Part shown: positions 1-53,774 of the stretch, one piece after another
How positions within the stretch are numbered: the first letter of the stretch is position 1
Layout: each line of letters begins with the position of its first letter
Virus record (IMG/VR): IMGVR_UViG_2529292906_000009
Span: 3,303 to 67,302 of that record
Length of the DNA stretch: 64,000 bases
Source of the DNA: a virus
Lineage: Duplodnaviria > Heunggongvirae > Uroviricota > Caudoviricetes
Strand: one strand, 5' to 3'
Program-made: the position numbers and the translations under genes
Notes under the pieces: generated by a model
What the model saw: the letters and a program-made list of their open reading frames with translations, nothing else
The model's database searches: none
Told to the model about the DNA's origin: nothing

Positions 1-963
1 AGAAGGGCCACCGACGGCTGTTTGCCTTTCCTCATCATCGGTATTGGTCTTAGGAGCACGCAGATCGGCTTTGATTTGCTCCAGCATCAGGGGCGGCACT
101 TTTCCGCCATGCGCCTCGATGAATTCAGCTGCTTCCAGCACTGACCAGTTATTTTCACGCTTTCGTTCGTATGCCAGCTTAACAATGCCAGCTTGCCCCA
201 TAGATAAAGCGTGCTTTTCCGCCTCCCGGCTTTCTTTTCGATAGTTATTCCGGATGCTGTAAATGGTGTTGATCAGGCTGCTTATCTGCGCGGAACAGCT
301 GTTTAGCATGCTCGCGATACGATATTCAGGCGGAGTCCCTTCATCATCGTCTTTTTGCTGATCGCGCATTTCCTGCACCAGACGAATACACGTATCCCTG
401 GCGTTCTCCAGCATAAGGAGATGAGAAAGAGACTTTTCCAGAAGAGTGGTTTCCAGAACATCGGCCCCGGACCGACGCAACATAGCGCGCGCGGCCTTCC
501 GCGCTTCAACGTTATCTATCAGGTAATCGCCAGCTTCGAATTCAAAGCGTTCACCATCATCATCCAGGGTGTCGCGTTCCAGGCGATCACGTAAGGTCCG
601 GTGGGCGCGGGTGATCACGTCATGATCATCAGAACGATCATTTATGCGCTTATTTTGGCGCTTCGCATTCTCGACTGCGGCACTGACAACGGCATTAACC
701 CTTTGTTTTTCCGCTATTTCAGCCGCAATGTGATCACCTGCATGTTGATCATTAGAGTGATCAATGATCATGCTTTTTAGTGGCTTCCTGACTGGCTTAT
801 TTGGCTTGCGGCTGTCCGCTGTCCTGGTGTCTTCTTTGAAGGCACGGAGATAACGACGTGCAGTATTAGGGTTAAGATTAAACTCGGCGGCATACTGTGC
901 GATGGTGTAACCACCATCTCGCGCCAGGCGAGCAAAATTCTTCTTGTGATCGTCCCAGGTCAC
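1..963 (-). CDS. pacA: Terminase small subunit PacA (P1-type), partial: C-terminus lies beyond the window start
   Basis: Open minus-strand frame running off position 1; GTG start at 961-963 preceded by AAGGAAG; N-terminal HTH-like segment ([20 protein letters not shown]); pac hexamer repeats lie inside it; recalled match to P1 PacA N-terminus. Confidence 0.8.
612..770. other. pac DNA-packaging site: seven TGATCA/G hexamers (each with a Dam GATC) in clusters of three (612-640) and four (731-770)
   Basis: Hexamers read directly at 612-617, 623-628, 635-640 (CGATCA), 731-736, 746-751, 758-763, 765-770; 3+4 arrangement matches the described P1 pac site. Confidence 0.75.
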
Positions 964-998: not shown

Positions 999-1015
999 AG
1001 GGTAACGAAAGTCAC
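999..1015 (-). promoter_or_regulatory. Candidate late promoter for pacA (GTGACTT-N4-TACCCT on minus strand)
   Basis: Between lpa stop and pacA start; same TGACT(T/A)-N4-TANNNT architecture recurs upstream of three other late operons in this window. Confidence 0.4.
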
Positions 1016-1048
1016 ATGTCAAAAGGCCCGGAACGGGCAAGCAATCAA

Positions 1049-1501
1049 TCAGATACGTGCGGATGTGGCATTACCGTAATGACGGTGCTGACGGGCCACC
1101 TTATTGAAAAGTTGACGCGCCATTACCCAAGGCTGGTGCTCCCGGCGTTCCTTTTCGTCCTGCGTCATATAGAGTTCGTTCTGGAGTTTTTCATCAAACC
1201 GGCGCGGAGCGCGGCTACGGCGAAAGAATTCAGGATTCAGAGAGTGGATCTGAAATCTACGTGGGCGTGTACTGTCATCAATCAAAACAGACGAATACTT
1301 AGACACAGCGATAGCCTTTAAGCGCAGATAAACATCGCGCTTATCGACATCCAGATGCGGGTATTCCTTTTCAAGAATTGCTGCGAGTTCTTTCGCTGAT
1401 AGAAGAGATTTAGTGCGGATCATGTAATCCGCAATCTCGTACGATGTTATTCGTGAGTGATTTATTTCCATGAAGTGGCGTCCCTGCCAGTTAAGTAACA
1501 T
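1049..1501 (-). CDS. lpa: Late promoter activator Lpa-like protein (150 aa)
   Basis: Position immediately upstream of pacA as in P1; size about 150 aa; RBS AGGTGA before ATG at 1501; C1-operator-like site just upstream. Confidence 0.55.
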   Translation of the reverse strand: MLLNWQGRHFMEINHSRITSYEIADYMIRTKSLLSAKELAAILEKEYPHLDVDKRDVYLRLKAIAVSKYSSVLIDDSTRPRRFQIHSLNPEFFRRSRAPRRFDEKLQNELYMTQDEKERREHQPWVMARQLFNKVARQHRHYGNATSARI

Positions 1502-6455: not shown

Positions 6456-6466
6456 TGGATTTGCCC

Positions 6467-7372
6467 CTATATTTCCAGACATCTGTTATCACTTAACCCA
6501 TTACAAGCCCGCTGCCGCAGATATTCCCGTGGCGAGCGATAACCCAGCGCACTATGCGGATGCCATTCGTTATAATGCTCGAACGCCTCTGCAAGGTTCT
6601 TTGCTGCCGTTAACCCGTCTGGTTTGGGCATGATACTGATGTAGTCACGCTTTATCGTTTTCACGAAGCTCTCTGCTATTCCGTTACTCTCCGGACTCCG
6701 CACCGCCGTGTTCTTCGGTTCAAGTCCCAACATCCGGGCGAACTGGCGTGTTTCATTAGCCCGGTAGCATGAACCATTATCCGTCAGCCACTCCACTGGA
6801 GACGACGGAAGATCGTTGCCGAAGCGGCGTTCCACCGCTCCCAGCATGACGTCCTGTACTGTTTCACTGTTGAAGCCGCCGGTAGTCACCGCCCAGTGCA
6901 GTGCCTCACGATCACAGCAGTCCAGCGCGAACGTGACACGCAGTCTCTCTCCGTTATCACAGCAGAACTCGAACCCGTCAGAGCACCATCGCTGATTGCT
7001 TTCTTTCACGGCCACTCTGCCTGTATGTGCCCGTTTCGATGGCGGTACAGCAGGTTTTCGCTCAAGCAACAGCGCATTCTGGCGCATGATCCGGTAAACA
7101 CGTTTGGCATTGATCGCAGGCATACCATCAAGTTCTGCCTGTCTGCGAAGCAGCGCCCATACCCGACGATAACCATACGTGGGCAGCTCTCCGATAACAT
7201 GGTGTATACGGAGAAGCACATCCGTATCATCAGTGTGACGACTGCGGCGGCTATCCATCCAGTCATCGGTTCGTCTGAGAATGACGTGCAACTGCGCACG
7301 CGACACCCGGAGACAACGGCTGACTAAGCTTACTCCCCATCCCCGGGCAATAAGGGCGCGTGCGCTATCCAC
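6467..7372 (-). CDS. insD: IS2 transposase InsD (OrfB, DDE)
   Basis: 301-aa ORF recalled as IS2 InsD; overlaps insC in the -1 frame. Confidence 0.9.
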
Positions 7373-7695
7373 TTTTTTGCCCGTCCATATTCAACGGCTT
7401 CTTTGAGGAGTTCATTTTCCATCGTTTTCTTGCCGAGCAGGCGCTGGAGTTCTTTAATCTGCTTCATGGCGGCAACAAGTTCAGAGGCAGGAACAACCTG
7501 TTCTCCGGCGGCGACAGCGGTAAGACTTCCTTCCTGGTATTGCTTACGCCAGAGAAATAACTGGCTGGCTGCTACACCATGTTGCCGGGCAACGAGAGAG
7601 ACCGTCATCCCCGGTTCAAAGCTCTGCTGAACAATTGCGATCTTTTCCTGTGTGGTACGCCGTCTGCGTTTCTCCGGCCCTAAGACATCAATCAT
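7330..7695 (-). CDS. insC: IS2 InsC (OrfA, HTH)
   Basis: [26 protein letters not shown]... recalled as IS2 InsC, 121 aa. Confidence 0.9.
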
Positions 7696-7793
7696 CTGTT
7701 CTCCAATGACTAGTCTAAAAACTAGTATTAAGACTATCACTTATTTAAGTGATACTGGTTGTCTGGAGATTCAGGGGGCCAGTCTAGCAACTC

Positions 7794-8471
7794 TCATACT
7801 TCACCCTCGCTTGTATCGCCAGCATCCACCAGCGGCAATAAAGCCCTGGCCATCTTATGAACCAATAGTGCATCAATAATGCCAAGCGTATGCCCCGGCT
7901 TAATGTTTAATGCCGCCTCAAGGTGACACCTTTCCAAGCCACTTTTCTCGGCTTGTTTATGATGATCTGGCGTAATAACGTCGCCCAAAACACGGCTAAT
8001 TCTTTCTCGTAATTGCTGGGTGCCCGCACACTTGATCGCTGTATCGTGGAGACGGTTAACCAGTTCGCGATAAACATGCGGTTTAATGCGGATACGTTCA
8101 CCGGTGACGCCCTTTCCTGGCCCTGGCACCGAACTATCCGGAATATCCGGATAGTTGCCAGCCTCGTAAGCTACCCGCAGCCAGTGCATGAATGTTTCCG
8201 CAGACACACAACCGCAGTCCACATCGATTTCCCCGCGTTGCTGCTCCAGCCATTGCTCAAAATCTAACTTGTAAGCATCACTTCCAAGTTGCTCTTTTTG
8301 TCTCAATGTCAGCACCTGTTGGGCTAGTTCCAGAACGATACCGGGTGACGCTAACCTCTCAAATTCCAATAAATAGTTTGCGTCTGGATGACAAGTAGCT
8401 TCCCCTGCAAAAAATACCAGTTGCTGTAAGTATGCTGTCGTTATTGCGGTCATAACTTTATCTCCTTGCAT
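7794..8471 (-). CDS. Hypothetical protein, 225 aa
   Basis: ORF in track; stop overlaps native start of the IS2-interrupted gene. Confidence 0.55.
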   Translation of the reverse strand: MQGDKVMTAITTAYLQQLVFFAGEATCHPDANYLLEFERLASPGIVLELAQQVLTLRQKEQLGSDAYKLDFEQWLEQQRGEIDVDCGCVSAETFMHWLRVAYEAGNYPDIPDSSVPGPGKGVTGERIRIKPHVYRELVNRLHDTAIKCAGTQQLRERISRVLGDVITPDHHKQAEKSGLERCHLEAALNIKPGHTLGIIDALLVHKMARALLPLVDAGDTSEGEV

Positions 8472-8680
8472 GGTTCGCCTTTACGGCAAACAGCTACACG
8501 GTCATTTCTTACATTAACCACAGTCACCGTTCCGTCATCGCATTGAATAACGATGAAAGGGTGTTCATTCTCTTTTGTGCAATGTTGCTGTTCCCCTGCT
8601 GTAACAGTGAGGGGAATTAATAAAATAATAATTACTGCGAATTTACTAAATGTTGTCATAGCAATCTTTCTGTTTTTCAT
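8450..8680 (-). CDS. Small secreted Cys-containing protein, 76 aa (N-terminal signal peptide)
   Basis: MKNRKIAMTTFSKFAVIIILLIPLTVTAGE signal-like N-terminus. Confidence 0.5.
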   Translation of the reverse strand: MKNRKIAMTTFSKFAVIIILLIPLTVTAGEQQHCTKENEHPFIVIQCDDGTVTVVNVRNDRVAVCRKGEPCKEIKL

Positions 8681-8973
8681 TATGGTTGAATCCAGTTATC
8701 TTCAATAGCAATGCTCAATCTTTGTAACCATTCTGCTAATTTCAGCATTGCTTCTCTTTCGCTTAAACCACACGGAAAATCATCAAGCGATATTGTTGGC
8801 TTGAAGTTTCCCAAATTATCCATTTCAACGGTCAGATTTTGCTCCAGCACGGTATTCCTTACGCGGCTATTGTGCCGAAGCAAATATACTGAACGTGATT
8901 TATTGGTTTTGTGGTCGAACGTATATTCGGTAAGTATCATCTGGCTTCCGCCATGATTATTACCGCGCCACAT
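8680..8973 (-). CDS. Hypothetical protein, 97 aa
   Basis: ORF in track within a tightly packed minus-strand operon. Confidence 0.45.
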   Translation of the reverse strand: MWRGNNHGGSQMILTEYTFDHKTNKSRSVYLLRHNSRVRNTVLEQNLTVEMDNLGNFKPTISLDDFPCGLSEREAMLKLAEWLQRLSIAIEDNWIQP

Positions 8974-9319
8974 AATTACTCCGTGTTAATTTTACTTTTA
9001 TCGCGAACACCTTTACCGGTTTATCGCCGAAGTGGGGATGTGTGATTGTCTTGATTTCATATCCGTCATACGGGACGTTAATTCTGCGGCTGGAGTCGTC
9101 GCGCTTCGGATATCCCTTTGTGATAATCAGGCGGTCATACTTACGGTTAACGAGGCGCTTATTCCAATAGTCATTACACAGGCGATACTCTTCCGTTTTC
9201 TCTCTGCGAATCATGGCATCGAAGTATTCACCTTTGACGGCAAGTTGCAGGTTAGCCACGGTTAACCTCCTGCGGCGGTTCCGGTAGCGGCATCCAGTGA
9301 GTTGCTTGCTCAATACCAT
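8960..9319 (-). CDS. Hypothetical protein, 119 aa, possible ASCH-like fold
   Basis: FDAMIRREKTEEYR resembles the ASCH GxKxxExR motif; weak. Confidence 0.45.
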   Translation of the reverse strand: MVLSKQLTGCRYRNRRRRLTVANLQLAVKGEYFDAMIRREKTEEYRLCNDYWNKRLVNRKYDRLIITKGYPKRDDSSRRINVPYDGYEIKTITHPHFGDKPVKVFAIKVKLTRSNYVAR

Positions 9320-9890
9320 TACCCGGCTTAATCGTTGCTTCTCCTCGCCGAAAGGTGCTTCCGGTATAGCGTGCGGAGCATATTAGCGGCTCAACCAGAT
9401 CGCTATCGAAATTCACCGAAATAAGTACGTTCTGATTCTTTTTCGGCATTCGCTCACTACAGCTTATCCAACCATCCGGAGTTACCGGAGAGTTGCCATT
9501 TACATCGAAGTTTGGCTCTGCGTCCTGAACCAGGAGGATGTAACCATTCTTGGCTGTATCAAGTTCTAACGCCTCGGTGACGGTGCCGAAATAGCGATTA
9601 CCTAAATCAGCATCACAAGTGCTTACATCAATGGAAACTTCCATGCCTTCGATTAATTCTGGCAAGTTGTAAGTTTGGCTTACAGGCTCTGCTTCCAGCG
9701 ATGCCAGCACAATTCGTGCCAACTCACGCACAACTTCAGGGGGCGCGTGACGGTCATTCAGGTCATCCCACAGACGTAGCATGTTATCGCTACCAGGGTG
9801 AACATCCTCATTAGTTCCGGCCAGCGCACTAATAACCTCATCGGCTGCTTCAATAATTTTCTGTGCCTGTTCTCTGGTAATAGTGGTCAT
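9252..9890 (-). CDS. DUF551-like phage protein, 212 aa
   Basis: C-terminal WMPLPEPP motif typical of DUF551 prophage proteins. Confidence 0.6.
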   Translation of the reverse strand: MTTITREQAQKIIEAADEVISALAGTNEDVHPGSDNMLRLWDDLNDRHAPPEVVRELARIVLASLEAEPVSQTYNLPELIEGMEVSIDVSTCDADLGNRYFGTVTEALELDTAKNGYILLVQDAEPNFDVNGNSPVTPDGWISCSERMPKKNQNVLISVNFDSDLVEPLICSARYTGSTFRRGEATIKPGNGIEQATHWMPLPEPPQEVNRG

Positions 9891-10096
9891 TTGTTAATCC
9901 TCAAAACTTTATGCCCGGGCGCAAAAGCACGTGTTTTGTCTTTACTTATTCGCCACCCGTCTTTACGGGCCTCTTTTGCACAACCAGACCATGACGTACC
10001 GATATACTCACCGAAGTCTGGCACTGGATATACACCTTCCGTACACTGGCGGCAGTCACAATAGAGATGCATGGTGTAACTTGCAGCGATAGCCAT
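9887..10096 (-). CDS. Small Cys-rich protein (start set at internal Met)
   Basis: Track ORF 9887-10177 overlaps upstream gene; internal ATG at 10096 removes the overlap. Confidence 0.35.
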   Translation of the reverse strand: MAIAASYTMHLYCDCRQCTEGVYPVPDFGEYIGTSWSGCAKEARKDGWRISKDKTRAFAPGHKVLRINK

Positions 10097-10097
10097 A

Positions 10098-10688
10098 TCA
10101 CTCTCCTTTGATGCGAATGCCAGGGGCGCGTGGCACATTAACTTCCACGATGCGCACAGTTGGTTTGTACATCTCAATCGCAGTCAGCCAGTCAGCGCCA
10201 GTCATGCGCTTTTCTGCATCGCCATTAGTCCACTTAACCGGTACACCAATAGCCTTCATCGCGATTTCTATTTCCCCGGCAATGGCGCTTTTTCCGCAAC
10301 CAGTAAAACCAGATACAACGACCAGAACTTCACCTTTGGCTGGTTTTATTTCCCGCGCTTCCAGTTCTGCTATGCGCTTACTTCCATCCGAGATAACACC
10401 TTCGTAATACTCACGCTGCTCGTTGAGTTTTGATTTTGCTTCCTCAAGCTCAACTCTCAGCTTCCCTACCGTTAGCGCAATATCCTCGTTCTCCTGGTCG
10501 CGGGATTTGATGTATTGCTGGTTCCTTTCCCGTTCATCCAGTAGTGCCAGCACGGTTTCTGGCGAAAAGTGCTTCATAAAATCGTTAAGCGCATTAATTC
10601 GCTGATCGAAAGGCATTACAGGTGCTTCACCAGCAATTTTTGTTTTTTCAGCGATTTCACGAAGCTTTTGATAATCAATCTTGCTCAC
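10098..10688 (-). CDS. Ea22-like coiled-coil protein, 196 aa
   Basis: N-terminus MSKIDYQKLREIAEK and coiled-coil core resemble lambdoid Ea22/ead family. Confidence 0.55.
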   Translation of the reverse strand: MSKIDYQKLREIAEKTKIAGEAPVMPFDQRINALNDFMKHFSPETVLALLDERERNQQYIKSRDQENEDIALTVGKLRVELEEAKSKLNEQREYYEGVISDGSKRIAELEAREIKPAKGEVLVVVSGFTGCGKSAIAGEIEIAMKAIGVPVKWTNGDAEKRMTGADWLTAIEMYKPTVRIVEVNVPRAPGIRIKGE

Positions 10689-11419
10689 TGGTTGCCTCCT
10701 TTGCGAAGCTGGGCAGCAAAGTCAACTAACCACTCAGTCATTTCAACCTTCCCTACCAGGTCTGAACCAGGGTGCATACAGCAATCACTCTGCGCCGCTT
10801 TGAAATCCTTATACTCATATTCTTGGGCCACCAGATTTTTTGCAGCTTCTATAGCAGCATCCACGCCCTGCGCCCGCACTTCAGCCAGGAAAGCATCGGT
10901 GGCTGGCATATTTCCTGTTGCCTTCATGGCCTCCAAAATAACCAGAACGCCATCTCGCCCAACCACCTCAGCGATAACCTCGGTGTTGTCGCCAACAACA
11001 TCGCAGAATGCCTGAACTGCCTTACGAGCCAGCTCATTCTCCACTGCCAGCGCCGTGCGATTACCCTCCAGCTCTGCAATGCGCTGTTTTGCGGCATCCA
11101 GTTCAATCGACAATTTTTCCAACTGCTCTTGATGCTTCTTGTATTCCTGATATGCGTGCCAAGACTGACCTTTGCGCACACTATCAGTGATATCAGTAAT
11201 CTGTTCTGGTGTTAGCGTGATCAGTGGCTGTGATGGGAAAATAAGCACTTTCCCGGAATCCCAATCAAAACCAGCGTGAATTGACTGAACCTCAACTGAA
11301 GGTGTTGAACCAATGCTGCCAGGCGAATGAACAACGATTGTTACATCCATATCGCGACGATGGCTGTGGTTGTTGGACAAAATACGATTCACCAACTCAG
11401 AAAATTTGGAAAATTTCAT
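10685..11419 (-). CDS. Hypothetical coiled-coil protein, 244 aa
   Basis: ORF in track; coiled-coil segment similar to neighbours. Confidence 0.55.
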   Translation of the reverse strand: MKFSKFSELVNRILSNNHSHRRDMDVTIVVHSPGSIGSTPSVEVQSIHAGFDWDSGKVLIFPSQPLITLTPEQITDITDSVRKGQSWHAYQEYKKHQEQLEKLSIELDAAKQRIAELEGNRTALAVENELARKAVQAFCDVVGDNTEVIAEVVGRDGVLVILEAMKATGNMPATDAFLAEVRAQGVDAAIEAAKNLVAQEYEYKDFKAAQSDCCMHPGSDLVGKVEMTEWLVDFAAQLRKGGNQ

Positions 11420-11706
11420 GCTGATTCCCCTTTCTCTGCTCTCTCCTGTCGGAACATCACTATCATCAGGTCGCCTTTTGTCGCTATCCTGGCTGTTGTA
11501 CCTGGTTCAATGCGGCTAAGCTCAAATGCGTCATAGAACGCTTCTAATGCCTTCTGGCGTAGTTCCTGTTTGCGCCGTTTTTTCCACTGTTTTAGGAAAA
11601 TGGAACCCAGCCATCGCCATGTGCGGGACATGATGTAAAGCCAACCGAGAAGTGCCAGACCGGTATTTAGGAGCGTATCGATCGTTATTGTCGTGTCGAT
11701 ATTCAC
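11416..11706 (-). CDS. Small membrane protein (GTG start overlapping upstream stop)
   Basis: Hydrophobic segment LLNTGLALLGWLYIM; GTGA start/stop overlap. Confidence 0.4.
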   Translation of the reverse strand: MNIDTTITIDTLLNTGLALLGWLYIMSRTWRWLGSIFLKQWKKRRKQELRQKALEAFYDAFELSRIEPGTTARIATKGDLMIVMFRQERAEKGESA

Positions 11707-12578
11707 TGGCTGCTTCCTTTGCGAATCTGTTCCGCCCATTCTTCAAGGGATTTCTCCGCATATTCACCAGACAGGCCATCAATCGGATGCGCTTCATTAG
11801 CCAACTCTTCTTTCGCTGACAAAATCATGCGTGTAACGTCGAAAACTTCACGCAAAGACTTATTGATAAATCCGTGATTGAACGCAGCAGCAAGACGGCT
11901 GGCGGTATAGTTAATCCCCTCGTTGCGTGCTTCCGCACGAATTTCAGACAGGAAAGCATCGGTGGCTGGGGTTTCGACATTAGGTCGAAGCTCATAATCA
12001 CAAACTCTTTCAATCCATGGTGATACTCTGTCGCATTTCCTCTTCTTGCGTTCACCGACCTTGGTTGCCTGCTGAATAATTACCCCCCAGCAAATGCTTT
12101 CGACCTCTTCGCTCCATCCATCGCAAGCATCGCCTCTATAGTCGTCAATTGCAGCCTCAGCAGCAGCGATAGCCTCCTCAGCAGTTTTGTGACACTCGAA
12201 ACTAAATTCAGAGCCATATGAGAAATACATAGCCCCGGCCTTCAGCGCCGCATTCTCCGCTGCCAGCGCCGCGAGATTAGTCTCAAGCTCTGCAATTCGA
12301 CACATAGCATCAATATTTGTGTCCTCCAGGCGCTTAATTTCACCAAGCAGCTCCAGTGCAACCTTTGGGTTGAACGCGGCAACATAACGAGCGTTGTTCT
12401 CTGCATTTTTCTGTCCATCAAAGCCGGTCCATTTGATAACGTCTTCACATCGTTCATCACCGGGCGTGTGCACCGCATAAGTACCAGTATCCGTCGAAAT
12501 AAATGCGACCCATTCGTCTGGTGTTGCCTTTTCTGCCGCCTCACGCAGTACCTGATAGTCAATTGTCATTCTCGCCAT
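11703..12578 (-). CDS. Ea22-like hypothetical protein, 291 aa
   Basis: MARMTIDYQVLREAAEK N-terminus parallels the 196-aa paralogue. Confidence 0.55.
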   Translation of the reverse strand: MARMTIDYQVLREAAEKATPDEWVAFISTDTGTYAVHTPGDERCEDVIKWTGFDGQKNAENNARYVAAFNPKVALELLGEIKRLEDTNIDAMCRIAELETNLAALAAENAALKAGAMYFSYGSEFSFECHKTAEEAIAAAEAAIDDYRGDACDGWSEEVESICWGVIIQQATKVGERKKRKCDRVSPWIERVCDYELRPNVETPATDAFLSEIRAEARNEGINYTASRLAAAFNHGFINKSLREVFDVTRMILSAKEELANEAHPIDGLSGEYAEKSLEEWAEQIRKGSSQ

Positions 12579-13210
12579 CCTTCACAGTTGTAATCACTAC
12601 AGCCTTCAAAATCATATGGGCTGTACTGCCAGGTTATTTTTCCGCAATGCGGACAATTCCAACGCACCTTCCCGCTTCGCGACTTCTTTCTTCTGTTTTG
12701 CTTTTTCAACCAGTCAGGCATGACCAAACCTGCGCCCTGAACCATTGTTCTGCGGTTAAAGTTATTGATATTGAACGTCCGGCGCTTTGCTGCATCAGCA
12801 ATGGAAAATGGCAACCAAACTATTCCTGGTTCGTTTTTGTTGGCGACGCTAAAGATGGTCGCTTTACTGAAGTCATCTGTTGGCAATCCACCGTGTTGAA
12901 GCCAGTAAACATCGTTGCCGTTCCAGCTACCTTTTTTGTAGGCCACATACGCAGTGCAATCTGACTCAATCAGGCTTTCTGTAGGGATGTACTGGCAATC
13001 AACGTGCCACACAGCCATTGCATCCACGCTATCAGCGCAAACAGGCTGATCGATATCTCGTCCACAATTCCAGGCTTTTTGGGCTGCTTCCAGCGTGTAA
13101 ACATGAGCGCGATCGATATCAGAACTGTAACCATTGCCGTTATGGCAATGGAATGAGGCGTTATTACCCACAGTTTCACGCAAGCACATCATGTAAAAGC
13201 GGTTATTCAC
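12566..13210 (-). CDS. Hypothetical protein, 214 aa, C-terminal CxxC zinc ribbon
   Basis: CPHCGK...CEGW at C-terminus. Confidence 0.5.
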   Translation of the reverse strand: MNNRFYMMCLRETVGNNASFHCHNGNGYSSDIDRAHVYTLEAAQKAWNCGRDIDQPVCADSVDAMAVWHVDCQYIPTESLIESDCTAYVAYKKGSWNGNDVYWLQHGGLPTDDFSKATIFSVANKNEPGIVWLPFSIADAAKRRTFNINNFNRRTMVQGAGLVMPDWLKKQNRRKKSRSGKVRWNCPHCGKITWQYSPYDFEGCSDYNCEGWRE

Positions 13211-13418
13211 TGGATGCCTCCCAGCAAATTTGTCTTATATAAGAACTGTTAACGCGCTTTACTTTCCCGTCGAACTCCAGTTTCTTTAGACGACGCAAAA
13301 CGTATGCCGTTTTGAGTGTGCGATATTTATCCCTAAGCCAGTTGGTCACGACGTAAGTCATACAGCGCCCGTGTTCTTCCAACACCCGAACTATTTCTTC
13401 GTCGGTTGGCTTGCTCAT
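13203..13418 (-). CDS. Small basic winged-helix-like protein, 71 aa
   Basis: ORF in track, overlapping neighbours by a few nt. Confidence 0.45.
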   Translation of the reverse strand: MSKPTDEEIVRVLEEHGRCMTYVVTNWLRDKYRTLKTAYVLRRLKKLEFDGKVKRVNSSYIRQICWEASSE

Positions 13419-13636
13419 TTTGTCGCTCCTTCAGCTTTCTCTACTTTCGCTGCCATGATTTCCAGCTTTTGTGCTGCCGATGCCGCTAACCTGTGAAATT
13501 CTTCATCTGTTTCAACTGGAATTGGTACAAACCTGACACCAATTTGAGCAAGGCTATGCGCCATTTCGAGACTTGCTCTTAACTCTGCTGGGGATGCTTT
13601 ATTCAGGCCGACTTCCTCACAAATAACTGATTGCAT
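13415..13636 (-). CDS. Hypothetical protein, 73 aa
   Basis: ORF in track. Confidence 0.45.
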   Translation of the reverse strand: MQSVICEEVGLNKASPAELRASLEMAHSLAQIGVRFVPIPVETDEEFHRLAASAAQKLEIMAAKVEKAEGATK

Positions 13637-13645
13637 ACGCTCGCC

Positions 13646-14251
13646 CTACTGAATACGCTCAAACTCGATTACCCAAACCCAGGGATTAGCACTCCAGCTT
13701 TCTTCGCCGTAGATGGATTCCCACAGGCGCTGGAACGCAACCTTGGCCATTGCGAAATCCCCCTTGGGAGTAAGGAATGTTCCCGGGTGATCAGGAAGCA
13801 AACTTCCAGCAGGCGGAACGCCCTCATCCCTTGCATCGCATTCGCTGATATCGTTCAACCGCTCAACGCGCACGTTGGTAATTTCCAGAAGAATGCGCGA
13901 TGCCCAGCGCGGCATGTGAATTGATGGCGTCCACTTTTCTGATACTGGTTTATTACAAACCTCGACCGGAACCCGGTGCGTTTGTTCTGTCCAGGAGTTA
14001 CGCACGCTTGCGCGATAAACCAGCGTTGCGACGTCCGTCGCTTTGCCATGTACCCGGTAGGTTTCGCGAACCCAAATACGATCGCCCGGTTGACCATATG
14101 GACAATGCTTGGCAAGCAACTCTGCGGCCACTGCCCGTCCATAGAATTTTTCTTCAACAATCCTGCGAGTCTGTGTTTTATTCCCGCCAAGAATTGCCCG
14201 GACCATCTCATCGTTAAAAATCATGCCGCGCTCTTTCACTTCGCCTTTCAT
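13646..14251 (-). CDS. ASCH-domain protein, 201 aa
   Basis: ILGGNKTQTRRIV matches ASCH GxKxxExR motif; strong RBS AAGGGGGA before ATG at 14251. Confidence 0.6.
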   Translation of the reverse strand: MKGEVKERGMIFNDEMVRAILGGNKTQTRRIVEEKFYGRAVAAELLAKHCPYGQPGDRIWVRETYRVHGKATDVATLVYRASVRNSWTEQTHRVPVEVCNKPVSEKWTPSIHMPRWASRILLEITNVRVERLNDISECDARDEGVPPAGSLLPDHPGTFLTPKGDFAMAKVAFQRLWESIYGEESWSANPWVWVIEFERIQ

Positions 14252-30555: not shown

Positions 30556-32810
30556 ATACCTAAAACGTCATGAGCTACACCTCGAGTGTCCCCCTTACAA
30601 GACACAGAACGTCTGGCAAAAAGAGGTTCCACTCTGAAGCCACTGTCATGATAAAGCTCTCTGATATTTGGCGCGCCACTGTTAGTAATGAGAACCTTTG
30701 CACCTCGACGATGAGCATCCGTCAACAGAGACACCAGGCGTTTTTGCTCTTCAAACTTAAAGTCATGACCGGAATAGTTCGTGAATCCCTCTGTATTTGG
30801 AAGCGGTTCATACGGCGGATCGCAAAAGATGACATCTCCTTCTCCGGCAGCTTCAATCACCGCTGCAAAATCACCGCATACAAACTCAGACCGCCCTTCC
30901 GCACCGAGGAAGGCTTCCATCTCCTGTAATGGGAAATACGGAGTTTTATACTTCCCATAACCGACATTGAACTCACCGGCCTGGTTGTAACGCGTCAATC
31001 CGTTAAAACAATGTCGGTTCAGGAACAAAAACGCCGCTGCGCGATGTAAATCATCATAGACTTGTTTGTTAAACGCATTCCGTACTGCCAGGTATCCTTC
31101 CTGTGTGTTGTAGTCCTGGAAGAAACGATGTGCCAGAGTGATAAGTGAATGCGCCTCGCGTTGCAGAGTCTTGTAAAAGTTAATCAGGTCAGCATTCACA
31201 TCATTTAGCAGATTTTCCTGGTATCCGGCATTCATGAAGACAGCTCCGCCACCAACGAAAGGTTCAATCAGGCGCTTCCCTTCTGGCAAATAGCGAAAGA
31301 TTTGTTCCAGAACACCAAATTTTCCACCAGCCCATTTGAATATGGACCGTTCGAATTCTGCCGCTGGTTTAACTTTTCGCTCTTTTGTTTTACTTCCTTC
31401 TTTCTGCCGACATACGGCCTTAGTAATCCGATCGCCAATCCAGCGCATTACTGGTATTGCCATACTATTGCCGATCGCTTTGTAACGCGGTCCGTCAGCT
31501 GCAAGCATCGCGGCCTCTTCTTCGCTTAAATCTGGATAGTGATTGCGAAGATATGCCAGTTCATCTGAATTAACTTTTTTACGCTTTTCCGTCGGGATCA
31601 ACGTATGCCCATCAGGAAAACCTTGCAGCCTTTCACATTCGACAGGGGTAAGACGGCGGACAGCTACTTCTGCGTTTCTTACTTCATAGCAAACAGCTGT
31701 TGGATTTTTAGCCATTAGAGATGGTGAAGTATTCTTAGTTGCAGCATGTTGTGTACCGCTCATACGCTCAGGAAAAGCCAATGTAACAAGATGCTCATGG
31801 CTTTCTTGCTCACGTGCCCGCAATGTACCATGCCCTTCTGACCAAAAACCTGCTCCTGTGCTGCTAAAAACGGCAAGGTCAGTGGCATCTTTAAAATCTC
31901 TTGCCTTTACTGTCGATGCGGTTTCATCGTCAATATATTCCCCAAATGCTGCCATCCTGAAAGCGTTTACGGCTTTCGTCGATTTCATACCGGGTGGAAT
32001 GTCAGCGTGTAGGCATGGATTTAGGCTTTCGCCACTGATTGCAGCGCCATTTGCAATAATGGCGGAAGCGATTTCCTTCTTTTTTCGGCTCGGCGCAATA
32101 TCCCGGCGCACGCCTTCGAACTCAAAAAGTACCGTTGCGGGATCGAGGTCTGTTCGAGCACTTGCGACAACAAACACGCGTCGGCGTCGTTGTGCCACTC
32201 CGAAGTATTGGGCATCAAGGATTCTCCAGGCCACCTTTCGCTGCGGTCCATAAATACAACCACACTGCGGCCACTTTGGAGCATGGCAACCGGTTTTGCC
32301 ATCCCACCGCCAGAACGCGTTACTTTTTCCTGATTCAGGTCGATCACCTGGTTCAAATGGCGCATCTTCTCCAGCCAATCCGGCAAGGAAACATCCGAAG
32401 GCGTTATCTGCCGATGACAGGACTCCTGGGACATTTTCCCAGACGATAACTGTCGGTTTGAGGAAGGACTCAGACCGTTTGTCGTCAATTGCATTTGCAA
32501 GCTCCACATACTTCAAAGTTAGCGCGCCGCGTTCATCATCAAGCCCACCACGTAAGCCCGCGATACTGAATGCCTGACAAGGTGTTCCCCCGACGAGCAC
32601 ATCAGGGGATTCGATTTCCCCAGCCAGGACTTTTTTGGCAAGTTTTGTCATGTCGCCAAGGTTGGCGACATGGGGCCAGCGGTGCGCAAGAACGGCAGAT
32701 GGAAAAGGCTCGATTTCAGCAAACCACGCCGGACGCATACCCAACGGTTCCCAGGCAATACTCGCGGCTTCAATTCCACTGCAAACAGATCCATAGCACA
32801 GCTCTTTCAC
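30546..32810 (-). CDS. dmt: Bifunctional DNA methyltransferase Dmt: N-terminal C5-cytosine MTase, C-terminal Dam-like N6-adenine MTase
   Basis: 754 aa; GGTPCQAFS and ENV motifs in N-half, DPPY motif in C-half; P1 Dmt has this size and architecture. Confidence 0.9.
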
Positions 32811-35879: not shown

Positions 35880-36272
35880 ATGTCTGATAAAGTAACAGTA
35901 AAGCAAACTATCAACAAAGCGACTTCAATCTACAAAATTGAGCAAATCACTGTTGGCAAGCCAGGATCTGAACAATACCGTCGTGCTTTCGAGCTTGCCG
36001 ATCAGCTTGGTTTAAAACACCCGGATTGCATTGAGCATGTATTTCCGACCTATGCTGATGAGCAATGTACTCATGTTCTTACCGAAGAGGATTTTTTCAG
36101 CACTGAAGAACGAGAAGGCGTTGATCGCTGCATTGGTGTGATTTGTTCTTCGGTAAGTGATGAGTTATTCCCTAATGTGCCTGAATATGGTGGTATTGGA
36201 TACCAATTCCTGTACGAGGGCGATGAGCTTAAATGCTATGAACATGGTCTTCTCATCGAAAGCGTAGAATAA
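35880..36272 (+). CDS. Hypothetical protein, 130 aa
   Basis: ORF in track; followed by a terminator. Confidence 0.5.
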   Translation: MSDKVTVKQTINKATSIYKIEQITVGKPGSEQYRRAFELADQLGLKHPDCIEHVFPTYADEQCTHVLTEEDFFSTEEREGVDRCIGVICSSVSDELFPNVPEYGGIGYQFLYEGDELKCYEHGLLIESVE

Positions 36273-36286
36273 TACGACTCCCTTCC

Positions 36287-36310
36287 AACCGGCTACGTTG
36301 GCCGGTTTTT
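36287..36310 (+). terminator. Rho-independent terminator before oriR
   Basis: AACCGGC-TACGTTG-GCCGGTT hairpin followed by TTTTT. Confidence 0.6.
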
Positions 36311-36590
36311 CACTTATCCACATTATCCACTGGATAGATCCAATAATCAGGTCCATACAGATCCCAATTAGATCCATATAGATCCCTGATCGTTGCAGGC
36401 CGCGCCACGTCTGGCTTAGAAGTGTATCGCGATGTGTGCTGGAGGGAAAACGATGTGTGCTGGAGGGATAAAAATGTGTGCTGACGGGTTGCTAATGTGT
36501 GCTGGCGGGATATAGGATGTGTGCTGACGGGAAAGCCTGGGTAGTTATCACCACTTATAAAAACTATCCACACATTTCGGAAAAAGTAAT
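36305..36590. other. Plasmid replication origin oriR: tandem DnaA boxes, five GATC sites in AGATCC heptamers, incC iterons
   Basis: TTATCCACA/TTATCCACT at 36314-36331; GATC cluster 36335-36395; iterons 36431-36535; DnaA box at 36565-36573. Confidence 0.8.
36431..36535. repeat. incC: five direct iterons (GATGTGTGCTGGAGGGAAA type)
   Basis: Five roughly 19-bp repeats at about 21-bp spacing directly upstream of repA. Confidence 0.85.
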
Positions 36591-37451
36591 ATGAATCAAT
36601 CATTTATCTCCGATATTCTTTACGCAGACATTGAAAGTAAGGCAAAAGAACTAACAGTTAATTCAAACAACACTGTGCAGCCTGTAGCGTTGATGCGCTT
36701 GGGGGTATTCGTGCCGAAGCCATCAAAGAGCAAAGGAGAAAGTAAAGAGATTGATGCCACCAAAGCGTTTTCCCAGCTGGAGATAGCTAAAGCCGAGGGT
36801 TACGATGATATTAAAATCACCGGTCCTCGACTCGATATGGATACTGATTTCAAAACGTGGATCGGTGTCATCTACGCGTTCAGCAAATACGGCTTGTCCT
36901 CAAACACCATCCAGTTATCGTTTCAGGAATTCGCTAAAGCCTGTGGTTTCCCCTCAAAACGTCTGGATGCGAAACTGCGTTTAACCATTCATGAATCACT
37001 TGGACGCTTGCGTAACAAGGGTATCGCTTTTAAGCGCGGAAAAGATGCTAAAGGCGGCTATCAGACTGGTCTGCTGAAGGTCGGGCGTTTTGATGCTGAC
37101 CTTGATCTGATAGAGCTGGAGGCTGATTCGAAGTTGTGGGAGCTGTTCCAGCTTGATTATCGCGTTCTGTTGCAACACCACGCCTTGCGTGCCCTTCCGA
37201 AGAAAGAAGCTGCACAAGCCATTTACACTTTCATCGAAAGCCTTCCGCAGAACCCGTTGCCGCTATCGTTCGCGCGAATCCGTGAGCGCCTGGCTTTGCA
37301 GTCAGCTGTTGGCGAGCAAAACCGTATCATTAAGAAAGCGATAGAACAGCTTAAAACAATCGGCTATCTCGACTGTTCTATTGAGAAGAAAGGCCGGGAA
37401 AGTTTTGTAATCGTCCATTCTCGCAATCCAAAGCTGAAACTCCCCGAATAA
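36591..37451 (+). CDS. repA: Plasmid replication initiator RepA
   Basis: 286 aa; recalled match to P1 RepA; flanked by incC and incA iterons. Confidence 0.9.
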   Translation: MNQSFISDILYADIESKAKELTVNSNNTVQPVALMRLGVFVPKPSKSKGESKEIDATKAFSQLEIAKAEGYDDIKITGPRLDMDTDFKTWIGVIYAFSKYGLSSNTIQLSFQEFAKACGFPSKRLDAKLRLTIHESLGRLRNKGIAFKRGKDAKGGYQTGLLKVGRFDADLDLIELEADSKLWELFQLDYRVLLQHHALRALPKKEAAQAIYTFIESLPQNPLPLSFARIRERLALQSAVGEQNRIIKKAIEQLKTIGYLDCSIEKKGRESFVIVHSRNPKLKLPE

Positions 37452-37740
37452 GTGTGTGCTGGAGGGCAGCTGCATTTGAAAAATGTGCGCTGCCGGGAAT
37501 GCCTGCCCATTTTCCTGTTTTTGGTGTGCGCTGGAGGGTTGCGCCACGCAGTTTGCCCAGACATTCCCTCCAGCACACATCTAACCATCCAAGTTTCCCT
37601 CCAGCGCACATCTAATCTTCTATCTTTCCCTTCAGCGCACATATTTGATACCAGCGATCCCTCCACAACACATAATTCAATGCGACTTCCCTCTATCGCA
37701 CATTCTGGTCCTGCATCATCCCTCCAGCACACATCTAATA
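37452..37740. repeat. incA: nine iterons (three forward, six reverse) downstream of repA
   Basis: GTGTGCTGGAGGG-type repeats and their reverse complements CCCTCCAGCACACA counted directly. Confidence 0.8.
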
Positions 37741-37844
37741 GCCTCATCGCTATTTCTTTACGTGCAATAATTTACGCACGAATCAAAATAAGTTGCACGT
37801 AGCAGAATCAAACGTACAATTCACTCATACGAAATGATAAGGAG

Positions 37845-39056
37845 ATGATGATGAAACGCGATTACGGCGGTGTCGGCACCATAGCTCTTCGTGCAAGCGC
37901 ATTACTTAAGGCCATGAGTCAGGATATTGAAGATCAGCGCAAAGAGTTCAATCAGACCGAGTATTATCAGACGTTCACTCGTAACGCTGTGGCAAAGTTG
38001 CCGAAGCTGAGCCGCCGCATTGTGGAGCAGGCCATCAAAGAGATGGAAGATGATGGGTACCAGTTCAACAAGAAACAGGTCGGTAACGTTGAACAGTACG
38101 CGCTGACCATCCAGAACGTCATTGATATCTATGCCCACCGTAAGATCCCAAAATATCGCGACATTCACAAATCGCCTTACGTTATTTTTGTCGTAAACCT
38201 GAAGGGTGGCGTATCCAAAACGGTTTCCACAGTCACGTTGGCGCACGCTCTGCGTGTGCATCAGGATTTACTGCGTCACGATCTGCGCATTCTGGTAATT
38301 GACCTTGACCCTCAGGCATCCAGCACAATGTTCCTCGACCATACTCACAGTATTGGTTCCATCCTGGAAACCGCCGCGCAGGCGATGCTGAACGACCTGG
38401 ACGCGGAGACGCTACGCAAAGAGGTGATTCGTCCGACCATCGTTCCTGGCGTAGACGTGATTCCAGCCTCTATCGACGATGGCTTTGTTGCCAGCCAATG
38501 GAAAGAGCTGGTTGAAGAGCATCTTCCCGGACAAAATCAGTACGAAATCCTTCGACGCAATATCATTGATCGTGTTGCGGATGATTATGACTTTATCTTT
38601 ATTGATACCGGTCCACACCTGGATCCGTTCCTGCTCAACGGTCTGGCGGCCAGCGATTTGCTGCTTACCCCTACCCCACCAGCCCAGGTTGACTTCCACT
38701 CAACACTGAAATATCTCACCCGTCTGCCAGAAATGCTGGAGCAACTGGAGGAGGAAGGCGTAGAACCGCGTTTAAGCGCCAGCATTGGTTTTATGTCGAA
38801 GATGACCGGCAAGCGCGATCACGAGACATCACACAGCCTTGCGCGTGAGGTTTACGCCAGCAACATTCTGGACTCTTCTCTACCTCGTCTGGATGGATTT
38901 GAGCGATGCGGCGAGTCTTTCGACACCGTAATCAGTGCCAACCCGCAATCGTATCCAGGCAGTGCAGAGGCGCTGAAGAAGGCTCGAACCGAGGCCGAGC
39001 GTTTCACTAAGGCTGTGTTTGATCGAATTGAGTTTGTTAGGGGTGAGGCGGCATGA
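37845..39056 (+). CDS. parA: Partition ATPase ParA (type Ia)
   Basis: 403 aa; NLKGGVSKT deviant Walker A; N-terminal HTH extension; parB follows. Confidence 0.9.
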   Translation: MMMKRDYGGVGTIALRASALLKAMSQDIEDQRKEFNQTEYYQTFTRNAVAKLPKLSRRIVEQAIKEMEDDGYQFNKKQVGNVEQYALTIQNVIDIYAHRKIPKYRDIHKSPYVIFVVNLKGGVSKTVSTVTLAHALRVHQDLLRHDLRILVIDLDPQASSTMFLDHTHSIGSILETAAQAMLNDLDAETLRKEVIRPTIVPGVDVIPASIDDGFVASQWKELVEEHLPGQNQYEILRRNIIDRVADDYDFIFIDTGPHLDPFLLNGLAASDLLLTPTPPAQVDFHSTLKYLTRLPEMLEQLEEEGVEPRLSASIGFMSKMTGKRDHETSHSLAREVYASNILDSSLPRLDGFERCGESFDTVISANPQSYPGSAEALKKARTEAERFTKAVFDRIEFVRGEAA

Positions 39057-40018
39057 AAAAAATAGTTTCCCGTGGACGAGTGCTGGGCAAGAATAGCTCC
39101 GAGTTTGCTCGCATGCTTGAAGGCAGTGAAGGCACCAAAACCTTTACCCTAAAATCTGGCCGCCAGGCTAAATTTTTGCTTACCGTTGTGCTGAGTGGTG
39201 AGATTGAGTCGCGCACGTTCGTTGACCCGGCAGTTAACGGCCGCGATCAGTCTCTGCTCACCCCTGAGTCGGTAAGCGATATTTCCCGCACCATTAAATT
39301 GCAACAGTTCTTCCCGGCTATCGGTCGTATGGTTGGGGAGCGCATTGAGGTATTGGACGGATCACGTCGCCGCGCTGCGTGTATCTTCAATGAAACGAAA
39401 TTTGAGATTCTGGTGACGAAAGATGAGATCAGCCTGGCGGATGCACGCCAGCTGGCCATTGATATCCAGACAGCCCGCGAACACACCCTGCGCGAACTGG
39501 GTAAACGCTTCGAGGTTATGTATGGTAAGAGCATGACCAAAGAAGAGATCGCCCGCGCTGAGAACATTTCAAAGGCTAAAGTTACGCGCGCGTTCCAGGC
39601 GGCAGCGGTGCCGGATGAGATGATTGCTGTCTTCCCTGTTGCCAGCGATCTCGCCCTGCCAGATTACCAGTTACTGCTCCAGATCTCCGAGGATGCCAAC
39701 GCTAAAAGCGTGCCTATTGAAGAGCTGGTTGATACGGTGCGCGAACGAATTGCAGAGACTGAGGGCGCGAAAGAGGATAAAGCGAAGATACTGGCTATCT
39801 TCAAAGCGGAAAGCAAAAGCCTGAAGCCCGCGCCGGTTAAATCTGTGGTGGTTGAGAAGCTGCGAGACTTCTCTGACCGTCGCCAATATGCTCGAAAGAA
39901 GTCCGATCCGAAAAAACGGGTTGTCGCCTACGAGTTCTCCAGACTCCCGTCTGAAGTGCAAACTGAAATTGACGAAGCAATAAAAAAAATCATTGGGAAA
40001 ATGTCTGCTGGGGAATAA
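39053..40018 (+). CDS. parB: Partition protein ParB
   Basis: 321 aa; ILDGSRRR ParB box; start overlaps parA stop. Confidence 0.85.
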   Translation: MKKIVSRGRVLGKNSSEFARMLEGSEGTKTFTLKSGRQAKFLLTVVLSGEIESRTFVDPAVNGRDQSLLTPESVSDISRTIKLQQFFPAIGRMVGERIEVLDGSRRRAACIFNETKFEILVTKDEISLADARQLAIDIQTAREHTLRELGKRFEVMYGKSMTKEEIARAENISKAKVTRAFQAAAVPDEMIAVFPVASDLALPDYQLLLQISEDANAKSVPIEELVDTVRERIAETEGAKEDKAKILAIFKAESKSLKPAPVKSVVVEKLRDFSDRRQYARKKSDPKKRVVAYEFSRLPSEVQTEIDEAIKKIIGKMSAGE

Positions 40019-40069
40019 TCCCGCTGGTGGGAGGTGGTGTTAGCCCCTCCCCTTCCTAAAATGTCCCGC

Positions 40070-40150
40070 ACCAATTTCATTGCTAACATTATGATTTGCA
40101 TGTGTTTTTTAGGAGAATTTCAGACTGAAATTCCCACGATTTAACGCCTG
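40070..40150. other. parS-like centromere region (ATTTCA-type heptamers and TTCCCA hexamer)
   Basis: ...AATTTCATTGCTAACATTATGATTTGC... and ...TGAAATTCCCACGATTTAAC... downstream of parB; boxes assigned by eye. Confidence 0.45.
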
Positions 40151-40281: not shown

Positions 40282-41988
40282 TTGAGTAACTTACGCGAAT
40301 ACCAGAATCGTATTGCAGATATCGCAAAACGCTCTAAAGCCGTTCTTGGCTGGGCAAGTACAGCACAGTTCGGTACTGATAACCAATTCATCAAAGATGA
40401 TGCCGCGCGTGCCGCATCTATCCTTGAAGCTGCACGTAAAGACCCGGTTTTTGCGGGTATCTCTGATAATGCCACCGCTCAAATCGCTACAGCGTGGGCA
40501 AGTGCACTGGCTGACTACGCCGCAGCACATAAATCTATGCCGCGTCCGGAAATTCTGGCCTCCTGCCACCAGACGCTGGAAAACTGCCTGATTGAGTCCA
40601 CCCGCAACAGCATGGATGCCACTAATAAAGCGATGCTGGAATCCGTCGCAGCAGAGATGATGAGCGTTTCTGACGGTGTTATGCGTCTGCCTTTATTCCT
40701 CGCGATGATCCTGCCTGTTCAGTTGGGGGCAGCTACCGCTGATGCGTGTACCTTCATTCCGGTTACGCGTGACCAGTCCGACATCTATGAAGTCTTTAAC
40801 GTGGCAGGTTCCTCTTTTGGTTCTTATGCTGCTGGTGATGTTCTGGACATGCAATCCGTCGGTGTGTACAGCCAGTTACGCCGCCGCTATGTGCTGGTGG
40901 CAAGCTCCGATGGCACCAGCAAAACCGCAACCTTCAAGATGGAAGACTTCGAAGGCCAGAATGTACCAATCCGAAAAGGTCGCACTAACATCTACGTTAA
41001 CCGTATTAAGTCTGTTGTTGATAACGGTTCCGGCAGCCTACTTCACTCGTTTACTAATGCTGCTGGTGAGCAAATCACTGTTACTTGCTCTCTGAACTAC
41101 AACATTGGTCAGATTGCCCTGTCGTTCTCCAAAGCGCCGGATAAAGGCACTGAGATCGCAATTGAGACGGAAATCAATATTGAAGCCGCTCCTGAGCTGA
41201 TCCCGCTGATCAACCACGAAATGAAGAAATACACCCTGTTCCCAAGCCAGTTCGTTATCGCGGCTGAGCACACGGTACAGGCGGCGTATGAAGCACAGCG
41301 TGAATTTGGTCTGGACCTGGGTTCCCTACAGTTCCGCACCCTGAAAGAATACCTGTCCCATGAACAGGATATGTTGCGTCTCCGCATCATGATCTGGCGT
41401 ACTCTTGCGACCGACACCTTTGACATCGCTCTGCCGGTTAACCAGTCCTTTGATGTATGGGCAACCATCATTCGTGGCAAATTCCAGACTGTATATCGCG
41501 ACATTATTGAGCGCGTTAAATCTTCTGGTGCGATGGGGATGTTTGCTGGCGCTGATGCAGCATCTTTCTTCAAACAGTTGCCGAAGGATTTCTTCCAGCC
41601 AGCCGAAGACTATATCCAGACTCCGTATGTTCACTACATCGGTACCCTGTTCGGTAACGTGAAAGTGTACGAAGTACCTGCTGGTATTTGTAAGAACTTA
41701 ACGACAGAGAACATTCAGTTCAGCTCGATGGATGTGCTGTGCTACGTCCGTGATGAAAATCCGGGTAAAGCAGGCTTCGTGACTGGTGATGCTGTCCCGG
41801 CCATCCCGTTCCAGCATCCGACCACTCCGGCGCTGGTCAACCGTACCACGCTGTGGGGTTCGGCTATCAACGATATGCACCCACGCAACGGCGCTGATTA
41901 CTTCACTCGTGTAACGCTGACAATGGCCAAAAAAGGCGGGCTTAACTTTATAAGCGGCGACACGATTGATGCCGGTGACTCTGAGTAA
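40282..41988 (+). CDS. Large late structural protein, 568 aa, probably major head protein precursor (P1 gene 23 position); TTG start
   Basis: TTG at 40282 with AAGGAAG RBS; first gene after parS as in P1; function by synteny only. Confidence 0.5.
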   Translation: MSNLREYQNRIADIAKRSKAVLGWASTAQFGTDNQFIKDDAARAASILEAARKDPVFAGISDNATAQIATAWASALADYAAAHKSMPRPEILASCHQTLENCLIESTRNSMDATNKAMLESVAAEMMSVSDGVMRLPLFLAMILPVQLGAATADACTFIPVTRDQSDIYEVFNVAGSSFGSYAAGDVLDMQSVGVYSQLRRRYVLVASSDGTSKTATFKMEDFEGQNVPIRKGRTNIYVNRIKSVVDNGSGSLLHSFTNAAGEQITVTCSLNYNIGQIALSFSKAPDKGTEIAIETEINIEAAPELIPLINHEMKKYTLFPSQFVIAAEHTVQAAYEAQREFGLDLGSLQFRTLKEYLSHEQDMLRLRIMIWRTLATDTFDIALPVNQSFDVWATIIRGKFQTVYRDIIERVKSSGAMGMFAGADAASFFKQLPKDFFQPAEDYIQTPYVHYIGTLFGNVKVYEVPAGICKNLTTENIQFSSMDVLCYVRDENPGKAGFVTGDAVPAIPFQHPTTPALVNRTTLWGSAINDMHPRNGADYFTRVTLTMAKKGGLNFISGDTIDAGDSE

Positions 41989-45620: not shown

Positions 45621-45644
45621 AAAGCTCCTACGGGAGCTTTTTTT
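45621..45644 (+). terminator. Rho-independent terminator ending the head/tail late operon
   Basis: AGCTCC-TACG-GGAGCT hairpin followed by T7. Confidence 0.7.
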
Positions 45645-45772
45645 ATAACTATTTTATATAAAAATGCATCGATAACATTGTCTGGAGTTTTATGTTAGAT
45701 TATTAATGTTCTAATAAACTACAATTATTGAGGTAGATGTTTGTGCCTGTACTGTTAAAGGGGGACTCTAAA

Positions 45773-46369
45773 ATGGCTGTGATTCCAATGTCGTACTCCC
45801 CGGGTACTGTCGCTCGTCGATTTTCGATCCTGGACGGAGTTACCATCCAGGGTGTGCTTTACCAGGTTATATGGGATTCCAAAACCCCATTTGCAGCTGT
45901 AATAGAGGCTGCGCCTTCTGTTATCGATGGTGATATGCGCCATAAGGTTGTCGCTACTCTTGAACTTCAACGTCGTCCGCAGCTTGAAGGCGTACTGGTA
46001 AGGAAGTTTTGGGAGGATAGCGATGTTGCCCAGATTGAAGGTATTGTGGTTGATGGAACTGTCCGGGATGTAGGTTTAGCTACTTTTGTTTACGAAACCG
46101 TAGCCTCAAAAGCTGGTGTTGTTTTGCTCAGTGATAATGAGCAATACGAAGGTGGAAAAGCTCTTTGGCAACACATCGCCCGTCGCTCTTCCGAGCTAAA
46201 AGTGTTTATCCTCGACACCGATGCCGCTCAGTATTACCCGTTTGACGGCGAACGTGTTTGCTATGACGGGGTAAGTATTCCTGAATCCGAGATATGGAGT
46301 GAACACCCAGATCGAAGTAAGCATGGGGTTGTTCTGGTCGCTGAATCCATAACTGGAAAGGCGGCATAG
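45773..46369 (+). CDS. Hypothetical protein, 198 aa
   Basis: Second ATG (45773) has AAGGGGGA RBS; no convincing domain. Confidence 0.5.
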   Translation: MAVIPMSYSPGTVARRFSILDGVTIQGVLYQVIWDSKTPFAAVIEAAPSVIDGDMRHKVVATLELQRRPQLEGVLVRKFWEDSDVAQIEGIVVDGTVRDVGLATFVYETVASKAGVVLLSDNEQYEGGKALWQHIARRSSELKVFILDTDAAQYYPFDGERVCYDGVSIPESEIWSEHPDRSKHGVVLVAESITGKAA

Positions 46370-46947: not shown

Positions 46948-46956
46948 TGTAATTTT

Positions 46957-46992
46957 ATAAAAAAGGCTGCAACCTCTGTTGCAGCCTTTTTT
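46957..46992. terminator. Bidirectional rho-independent terminator
   Basis: AGGCTGCAAC-CTCT-GTTGCAGCCT 10-bp stem flanked by A6 and T6. Confidence 0.75.
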
Positions 46993-53763: not shown

Positions 53764-53774
53764 CCTGTCACAAA

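Follow-up and report, generated by a model that had tools for sequence, protein, structure and literature searches.

The closest described systems to the two clusters of Dam sites (GATC) analyzed here are the packaging site (pac) and the plasmid replication origin (oriR) of bacteriophage P1. P1 pac was reportedly studied by Sternberg & Coulby in 1987/1988 and by Skorupski et al. in 1994, and P1 oriR/incC by Abeles & Austin in 1987 and Brendler et al. in 1995. P1 pac comprises approximately 161 bp with seven TGATCA/G hexamers that contain Dam sites (PMC10028697). The pacase was proposed to bind hemimethylated pac, further methylation being proposed to promote cleavage, and IHF and HU help by bending pac (PMC10028697, citing Sternberg & Coulby and Skorupski et al.). 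For replication of plasmid P1, methylation of the origin is essential and the initiator sites are devoid of GATC, the reason for the methylation requirement having been called 'not clear' (PMC2865523). The DNA-unwinding element of P1 adjoins the DnaA-box array (PMC4980987), and a reference in PMC2691817 names SeqA as a protein whose binding to the P1 origin core is methylation-specific.

The window, i.e., the complete stretch of 64,000 nucleotides that was analyzed, is collinear with P1 at approximately 98% identity, with several non-P1 segments interspersed. With high confidence we regard it as a P1-like (Punavirus) plasmid prophage and its two GATC clusters as the packaging site and the plasmid origin of this element (Table 1). 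In the preliminary description of this DNA both regions had been named as GATC-dense and as indicative of the methylation-sensitive control of packaging and replication known for P1; nowhere else in the window is GATC indeed as densely clustered, and both regions match annotated and experimentally characterized elements of P1, namely pac and oriR. The biology of both clusters has long been established for P1 and would be carried over to this element by near-identity. Dependence on methylation would likewise follow from the experiments with P1, the window itself providing the GATC sites and a Dam-type dmt gene.

Table 1. Coordinates of the features of the packaging site, the methyltransferase gene and the plasmid origin in the window.
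Feature	Position	Strand	Remarks
pacA, first 321 codons	1..963	-	98.1% amino acid identity to P1 PacA; continues past the left end of the window
Eighth TGATCG hexamer	584..589	-	Outside the seven-hexamer site
pac, packaging site	612..770	-	Inside the 5' part of pacA; seven TGATC(A/G) hexamers; 99% identity to P1 pac
HEX3, three-hexamer group	612..640	.	TGATCA at 612-617 and 623-628; TGATCG (minus strand) at 635-640
Primary pac cleavage positions (P1-equivalent)	679..688	.	P1 annotation 90804-90813; sequence identical to P1
Predicted IHF site of pac	696..708	-	P1 annotation 90784-90796; 12/13 bases identical
HEX4, four-hexamer group	731..770	.	TGATCA at 731-736, 746-751, 758-763 and 765-770
LPpac, late promoter upstream of pacA	999..1017	-	P1 annotation; 940-1060 100% identical to P1
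lpa, late promoter activator needed for LPpac	1049..1501	-	Intact 150-aa ORF at the position of P1 lpa
dmt, bifunctional DNA methyltransferase	30546..32810	-	Intact 754-aa ORF at the position of P1 dmt
oriR, plasmid replication origin	36293..36534	+	P1 rep_origin annotation; identical to P1 over 36290-36523
Two tandem DnaA boxes, TTATCCACA and TTATCCACT	36314..36331	+	Left edge of the origin, as in P1 oriR
A+T-rich heptamer array, five GATC	36336..36393	.	39% G+C
G+C-rich stretch of the origin core	36395..36412	.	69% G+C over 36395-36420; kept in relatives
Five 19-bp RepA iterons (incC)	36431..36534	+	Overlap the repA promoter; no GATC
repA, initiator gene (286 aa)	36591..37451	+	
incA, nine RepA iterons, copy-number control	37452..37734	.	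P1 annotation

Sequence comparison of positions 400-1000 with phage P1 showed 99.0% identity, in reverse orientation. The GATC sites of pac start at 613, 624, 636, 732, 747, 759 and 766, and the two hexamer groups (3+4) flank a core of 90 bp, with the inner GATC sites 96 bp apart, in the arrangement of a P1-type pac; both the number of seven hexamers and their outer edges at 612 and 770 are exactly as had been described beforehand. The P1 pac annotated in AF234172 has the same 4+3 hexamers, spacing, cleavage sequence, IHF site, location in pacA and late promoter, whereas two substitutions in the 259 aligned columns of 560-820 (at 631 and 700), both outside the hexamers, distinguish the window from it. 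According to the P1 annotation, the four mapped primary cleavage positions would all fall within 679-688, and this putative cleavage region as well as the predicted IHF site are located between the hexamer groups, as in P1-type pac. The IHF consensus is WATCAANNNNTTR, and the change at 700 falls within its NNNN. In some pac haplotypes of P1-like relatives, the CAA of this consensus is replaced by CAG. The eighth hexamer is present in P1-like genomes but missing in Cronobacter phage JK004, and is therefore probably no part of the functional site. Codons 1-321 of pacA, LPpac and lpa are covered by the window, and the 3' end of pacA and pacB lie beyond its edge.

Following the P1 experiments, we propose that the PacA/PacB pacase would recognize the hexamers only with methylated adenines, the methyl groups coming from Dam of the host or from the Dmt that the phage encodes, that IHF and HU would bend the core and that the pacase would cut in the middle of the core, by which headful packaging would be started. 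On freshly replicated DNA, hemimethylated pac would be bound and left uncut, so that only a fraction of the pac sites of a concatemer would be opened, and from an opened site packaging would run processively. With regard to the source of methylation, Pfam searches recognized in Dmt a D12 N6-adenine methyltransferase domain (PF02086, 1e-56) and a C5 methyltransferase domain (PF00145, 4e-36), and since this Dam-type gene is intact, the element probably carries its own source of GATC methylation.

The origin region shows 99.4% identity to P1 over 36200-36700. In comparison to P1 oriR/incC (IncY RepA replicon), no base differs over the stretch that includes the DnaA boxes and the first four and a half iterons, repA and incA following. 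Two substitutions, both common to P7, lie within the fifth iteron or behind it; the adjacent partition genes are of the P7 type, unlike those of P1. As in P1 oriR, the heptamer array with its five GATC sites is followed by the G+C-rich stretch and then, in this order, by the incC iterons, repA and the nine incA iterons. The GATC sites are found at 36337, 36360, 36371, 36381 and 36388, i.e., with spacings of 23, 11, 10 and 7 bp, and coincide with the sites annotated in P1 as 'Dam methylation site 1-5 in the region of incC'. In our description, which was derived from the sequence itself, the units of the array are in order AGATCCA, AGGTCCA, AGATCCC, AGATCCA, AGATCCC and TGATCGT. Five GATC heptamers had been noted at 36335-36395; the number of GATC sites and their position hold, but only four of them lie in AGATCC[A/C] units (36336, 36359, 36370 and 36380), the fifth being part of TGATCGT (36387), and AGGTCCA (36349-36355) is a heptamer-like unit without GATC.

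The five sites are arranged approximately one helical turn apart between the DnaA boxes and the G+C-rich stretch, and the heptamers occupy the place next to the DnaA boxes that is given for the unwinding element of P1 (PMC4980987). As judged from the experiments with P1, the core would have to be Dam-methylated for the origin to fire, and a just-replicated, hemimethylated core would be bound by host SeqA, which would delay re-initiation. Because the iterons contain no GATC, we propose that methylation exerts its effect at the opening region rather than on the binding of the initiator. Escherichia coli oriC is similar in its dense, helically phased GATC sites in the origin-opening region and in the binding of SeqA, documented for the P1 core by a reference in PMC2691817; however, methylation is not intrinsically required at oriC, whereas it was reported to be essential at oriR (PMC2865523). 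RepFIB-type origins (pColV-K30 REPI, Yersinia pestis pMT1 and Klebsiella IncFIB phage-plasmids) have the layout of the origin core in common with P1, i.e., DnaA boxes, GATCC heptamers with a spacing of about 11 bp, and a G+C-rich stretch, but differ in their iterons and initiator specificity, and Dam dependence was reported for ColV-K30 (PMC2865523). IncFIB-type replicons from Klebsiella, Y. pestis, Escherichia albertii and Pantoea could be aligned with the oriR core at an identity of 73-85% (36296-36440 against loci L096-L099, including a Y. pestis pMT1-like plasmid). These relatives have three to six GATC sites in register, most of them with a GATC at the position of AGGTCCA in P1, and all six aligned sequences fully agree in the first GATCCAATAA unit and in the AGATCCC unit that precedes the G+C stretch.

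Beyond the two sites, the element is distinct from the P1 reference and is a P1/P7 mosaic with insertions. Its partition module (parA, 403 aa; parB, 321 aa; and the parS side; 37740-40120) shows 99% identity to P7 and about 65% to P1, while the adjacent repA/oriR is nearer to P1 (99.4%) than to P7 (97%), which makes the element a P1/P7 mosaic with P7 partition specificity. In PLSDB and among the complete E. coli records of RefSeq, the coverage of the window's first 25 kb by any single record did not exceed 88-89%. A block of 5.5 kb (8169-13676) which is missing in P1, where the insertion point is 85182/85183, carries genes for a DUF551 protein and for two Ead/Ea22-like proteins, together with several ORFs that have no Pfam match; blocks resembling it are present in other P1-like plasmids. 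Two segments without P1 homology, 45643-48323 and 52717-53770, replace the rlfA/rlfB-pmgF and simABC regions, the former with an ORF for a ParA/MinD-like ATPase (47018-48073) and the latter with an ORF whose weak phosphatase-like match is under the Pfam cut-off.

The state of the prophage bears on whether both GATC clusters are in use. It may be that pac, although intact, is a relic in a prophage defective for lytic growth, in which only the oriR cluster would still be used; we regard this as unlikely, yet of the alternatives considered here it is the one to be taken most seriously. The lytic replication module (kilA, repL) looks damaged. In kilA, an insertion of about 710 bp (49792-50500) is found at P1 position 50117 without target duplication, and it carries an ORF (49884-50393) for a Y1 transposase of the IS200 type (Pfam PF01797, 5e-38). 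The gene repL (48337-49182, minus strand), which encodes the lytic replication initiator and also contains oriL, has a run of A6 around 48660 in place of A7 in P1, and this deletion of one nucleotide leaves two ORFs, of 192 and 89 aa, where the gene has 281 codons. Taken together, the insertion in kilA and the deletion in repL mean that pac may be unused in this element. A further insertion, of 1331 bp (6457-7787), is located at the pmgU/pmgV junction relative to P1 and belongs to the IS3 family, with ORFs for HTH_Tnp_1 (7330-7740) and an rve integrase (6467-7372) and a size consistent with IS2. On the other hand, the repL change lies in a homopolymer and could be either a real frameshift or a sequencing error, and kilA is not known to be essential. 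Moreover, pac, LPpac, lpa and dmt are undamaged, and the pac haplotype of the window is the commonest one (10/83) among the 83 P1-like pacA genes compared here, which represent 71 distinct alleles.

Since pac is located within a gene, its hexamers might also be a mere by-product of coding for a run of Asp-His/Asp-Gln, in which GAT-CAx codon pairs create GATC. Five of the seven hexamers can indeed be read as xxT-GAT-CAx/CGT, and D-H/D-Q peptide repeats occur in P1 as well as in distant homologues, e.g., in Pantoea ('DHNHDHSSDHASDHQNDH'). However, the other two hexamers are in another frame, xTG-ATC-Axx (ATG-ATC-A, coding for M-I-I, and GTG-ATC-A, coding for V-I-T), the flanking T and A/G are fixed as well, and Asp at hexamer positions is never encoded by GAC. 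Neighboring codons vary while the hexamers stay conserved: in the 83 genes, 4 of 42 hexamer columns are variable as compared to 41 of 119 columns in the rest of pac (Fisher p = 0.0014). HEX4 is invariant in this sample with the exception of the 731-736 hexamer, which is altered in 5/83 genes, and 34% of the columns are polymorphic in the pac core (641-730), about twice the 17% for pacA as a whole. When hexamer and non-hexamer columns were compared across the whole of pacA in these 83 genes, the difference in variability was not significant (p = 0.22), since the pac core varies more than the rest of pacA. Cronobacter phage JK004 has a PacA of 67-70% identity, and in its gene hexamers 2-7 are kept at the same offsets as in the window (201, 213, 228 and 324, 336, 347) and the HEX3 spacing of 11 and 12 bp is exactly preserved, whereas the intervening sequence has diverged; hexamer 1 and the eighth, outlying hexamer are absent there. 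In distant relatives the same hexamers occur also in non-coding DNA upstream of the gene. Finally, synonymous mutations of the hexamers reduced the titer of P1 about nine-fold (PMC10028697). An origin as a coding by-product is hence largely refuted and in our judgment very improbable; reading frames, population variation, the JK004 comparison and the synonymous-mutation experiment point to the hexamers being a signal at the DNA level.

For this DNA-level signal, more remote homologues of PacA were informative as well. A search with the PacA alignment yielded five loci in genome contigs and 80 loci in viral contigs, all of the latter being close relatives at 95-100%, and distant comparators were therefore few (six). 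The homologues with lower identity are those of 'Ca. Pantoea alvi' (53%), an Enterobacter kobei plasmid (33%) and three Pantoea plasmids (27-28%). A Citrobacter plasmid carries a homologue that a Tn3-family transposon has truncated, and this homologue gave no information as a comparator. In all PacA homologues of 27-53% identity examined, TGATCA clusters begin 144-213 nt into the gene, the arrays lying at +144 to +246 nt and some of them reaching into upstream non-coding DNA. When JK004 is included, the six loci have three to eight TGATCA within a span of 261 nt, which corresponds to 4-17% of each locus. The Pantoea type is characterized by six or seven TGATCA with a strict period of 12 bp. 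Further TGATCA pairs precede its start codon by about 75-85 bp and follow the main array at a distance of about 150 bp. The arrays in the Pantoea loci L010, L014 and L015, in the E. kobei locus L008 and in locus L013 probably represent a variant pac architecture. From these homologues we are inclined to think, with some reserve, that Dam-site arrays in the 5' part of pacA, a small-terminase-like gene, would be an ancestral packaging signal of the whole family and no peculiarity of P1.

The density of GATC was also evaluated statistically. The window contains 257 GATC sites as compared to 253 ± 16 in shuffled sequences, i.e., it shows no overall enrichment. Among 2000 dinucleotide-preserving shuffles, at least seven GATC in 158 bp were found in 11 (p 0.0055) and at least five GATC in 56 bp in 14 (p 0.007), and each of these scan-statistic p-values is modest by itself. 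Elsewhere in the window 28% of the GATC sites have the context TGATCR, as compared to 7/7 sites in pac (p ~1.5e-4). That a tetramer as common as GATC would cluster in this way by chance within 64 kb, as the lack of overall enrichment and the recurrence of each cluster alone in about 0.6% of shuffles might suggest, has next to no probability in view of the occurrence of two such clusters together, the fixed hexamer context, their exact coincidence with the annotated functional sites of P1 and their conservation in relatives at 27-70% protein and 73-85% DNA identity. Unannotated groups of three to four GATC sites in coding sequence, at 41154-41211 (gene 23) and 51761-51900 (ant1), have a density within the range of the shuffles and were rejected as further candidates. 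A third cluster absent from the preliminary description, with three GATC in 23 bp (50822-50844), overlaps the -35 region of PkilA (P53), the C1-controlled promoter of kilA-repL, and is the equivalent of the three Dam methylation sites (1-3) that the P1 annotation places in the kilA regulatory region.

As the start of packaging and the start of plasmid replication, the two sites mark the window as a P1-like plasmid prophage. In practice they can serve as landmarks when the direction of transduction is predicted, when natural variants are made into P1 phagemids or PAC-type vectors and when methylomes are interpreted; beyond correct annotation, their significance is small. New here are the comparative data, i.e., the hexamers as conserved islands in 83 pacA genes and the TGATCA arrays in homologues down to 27% identity. 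If these arrays are pac sites, methylation-gated packaging would be general in this group of plasmid prophages, with variant site architecture. Taken all together, the hexamer islands, the arrays of the distant PacA homologues and the GATCC array shared with IncFIB replicons suggest that the control of packaging and of origin firing by adenine methylation is older and wider than P1.
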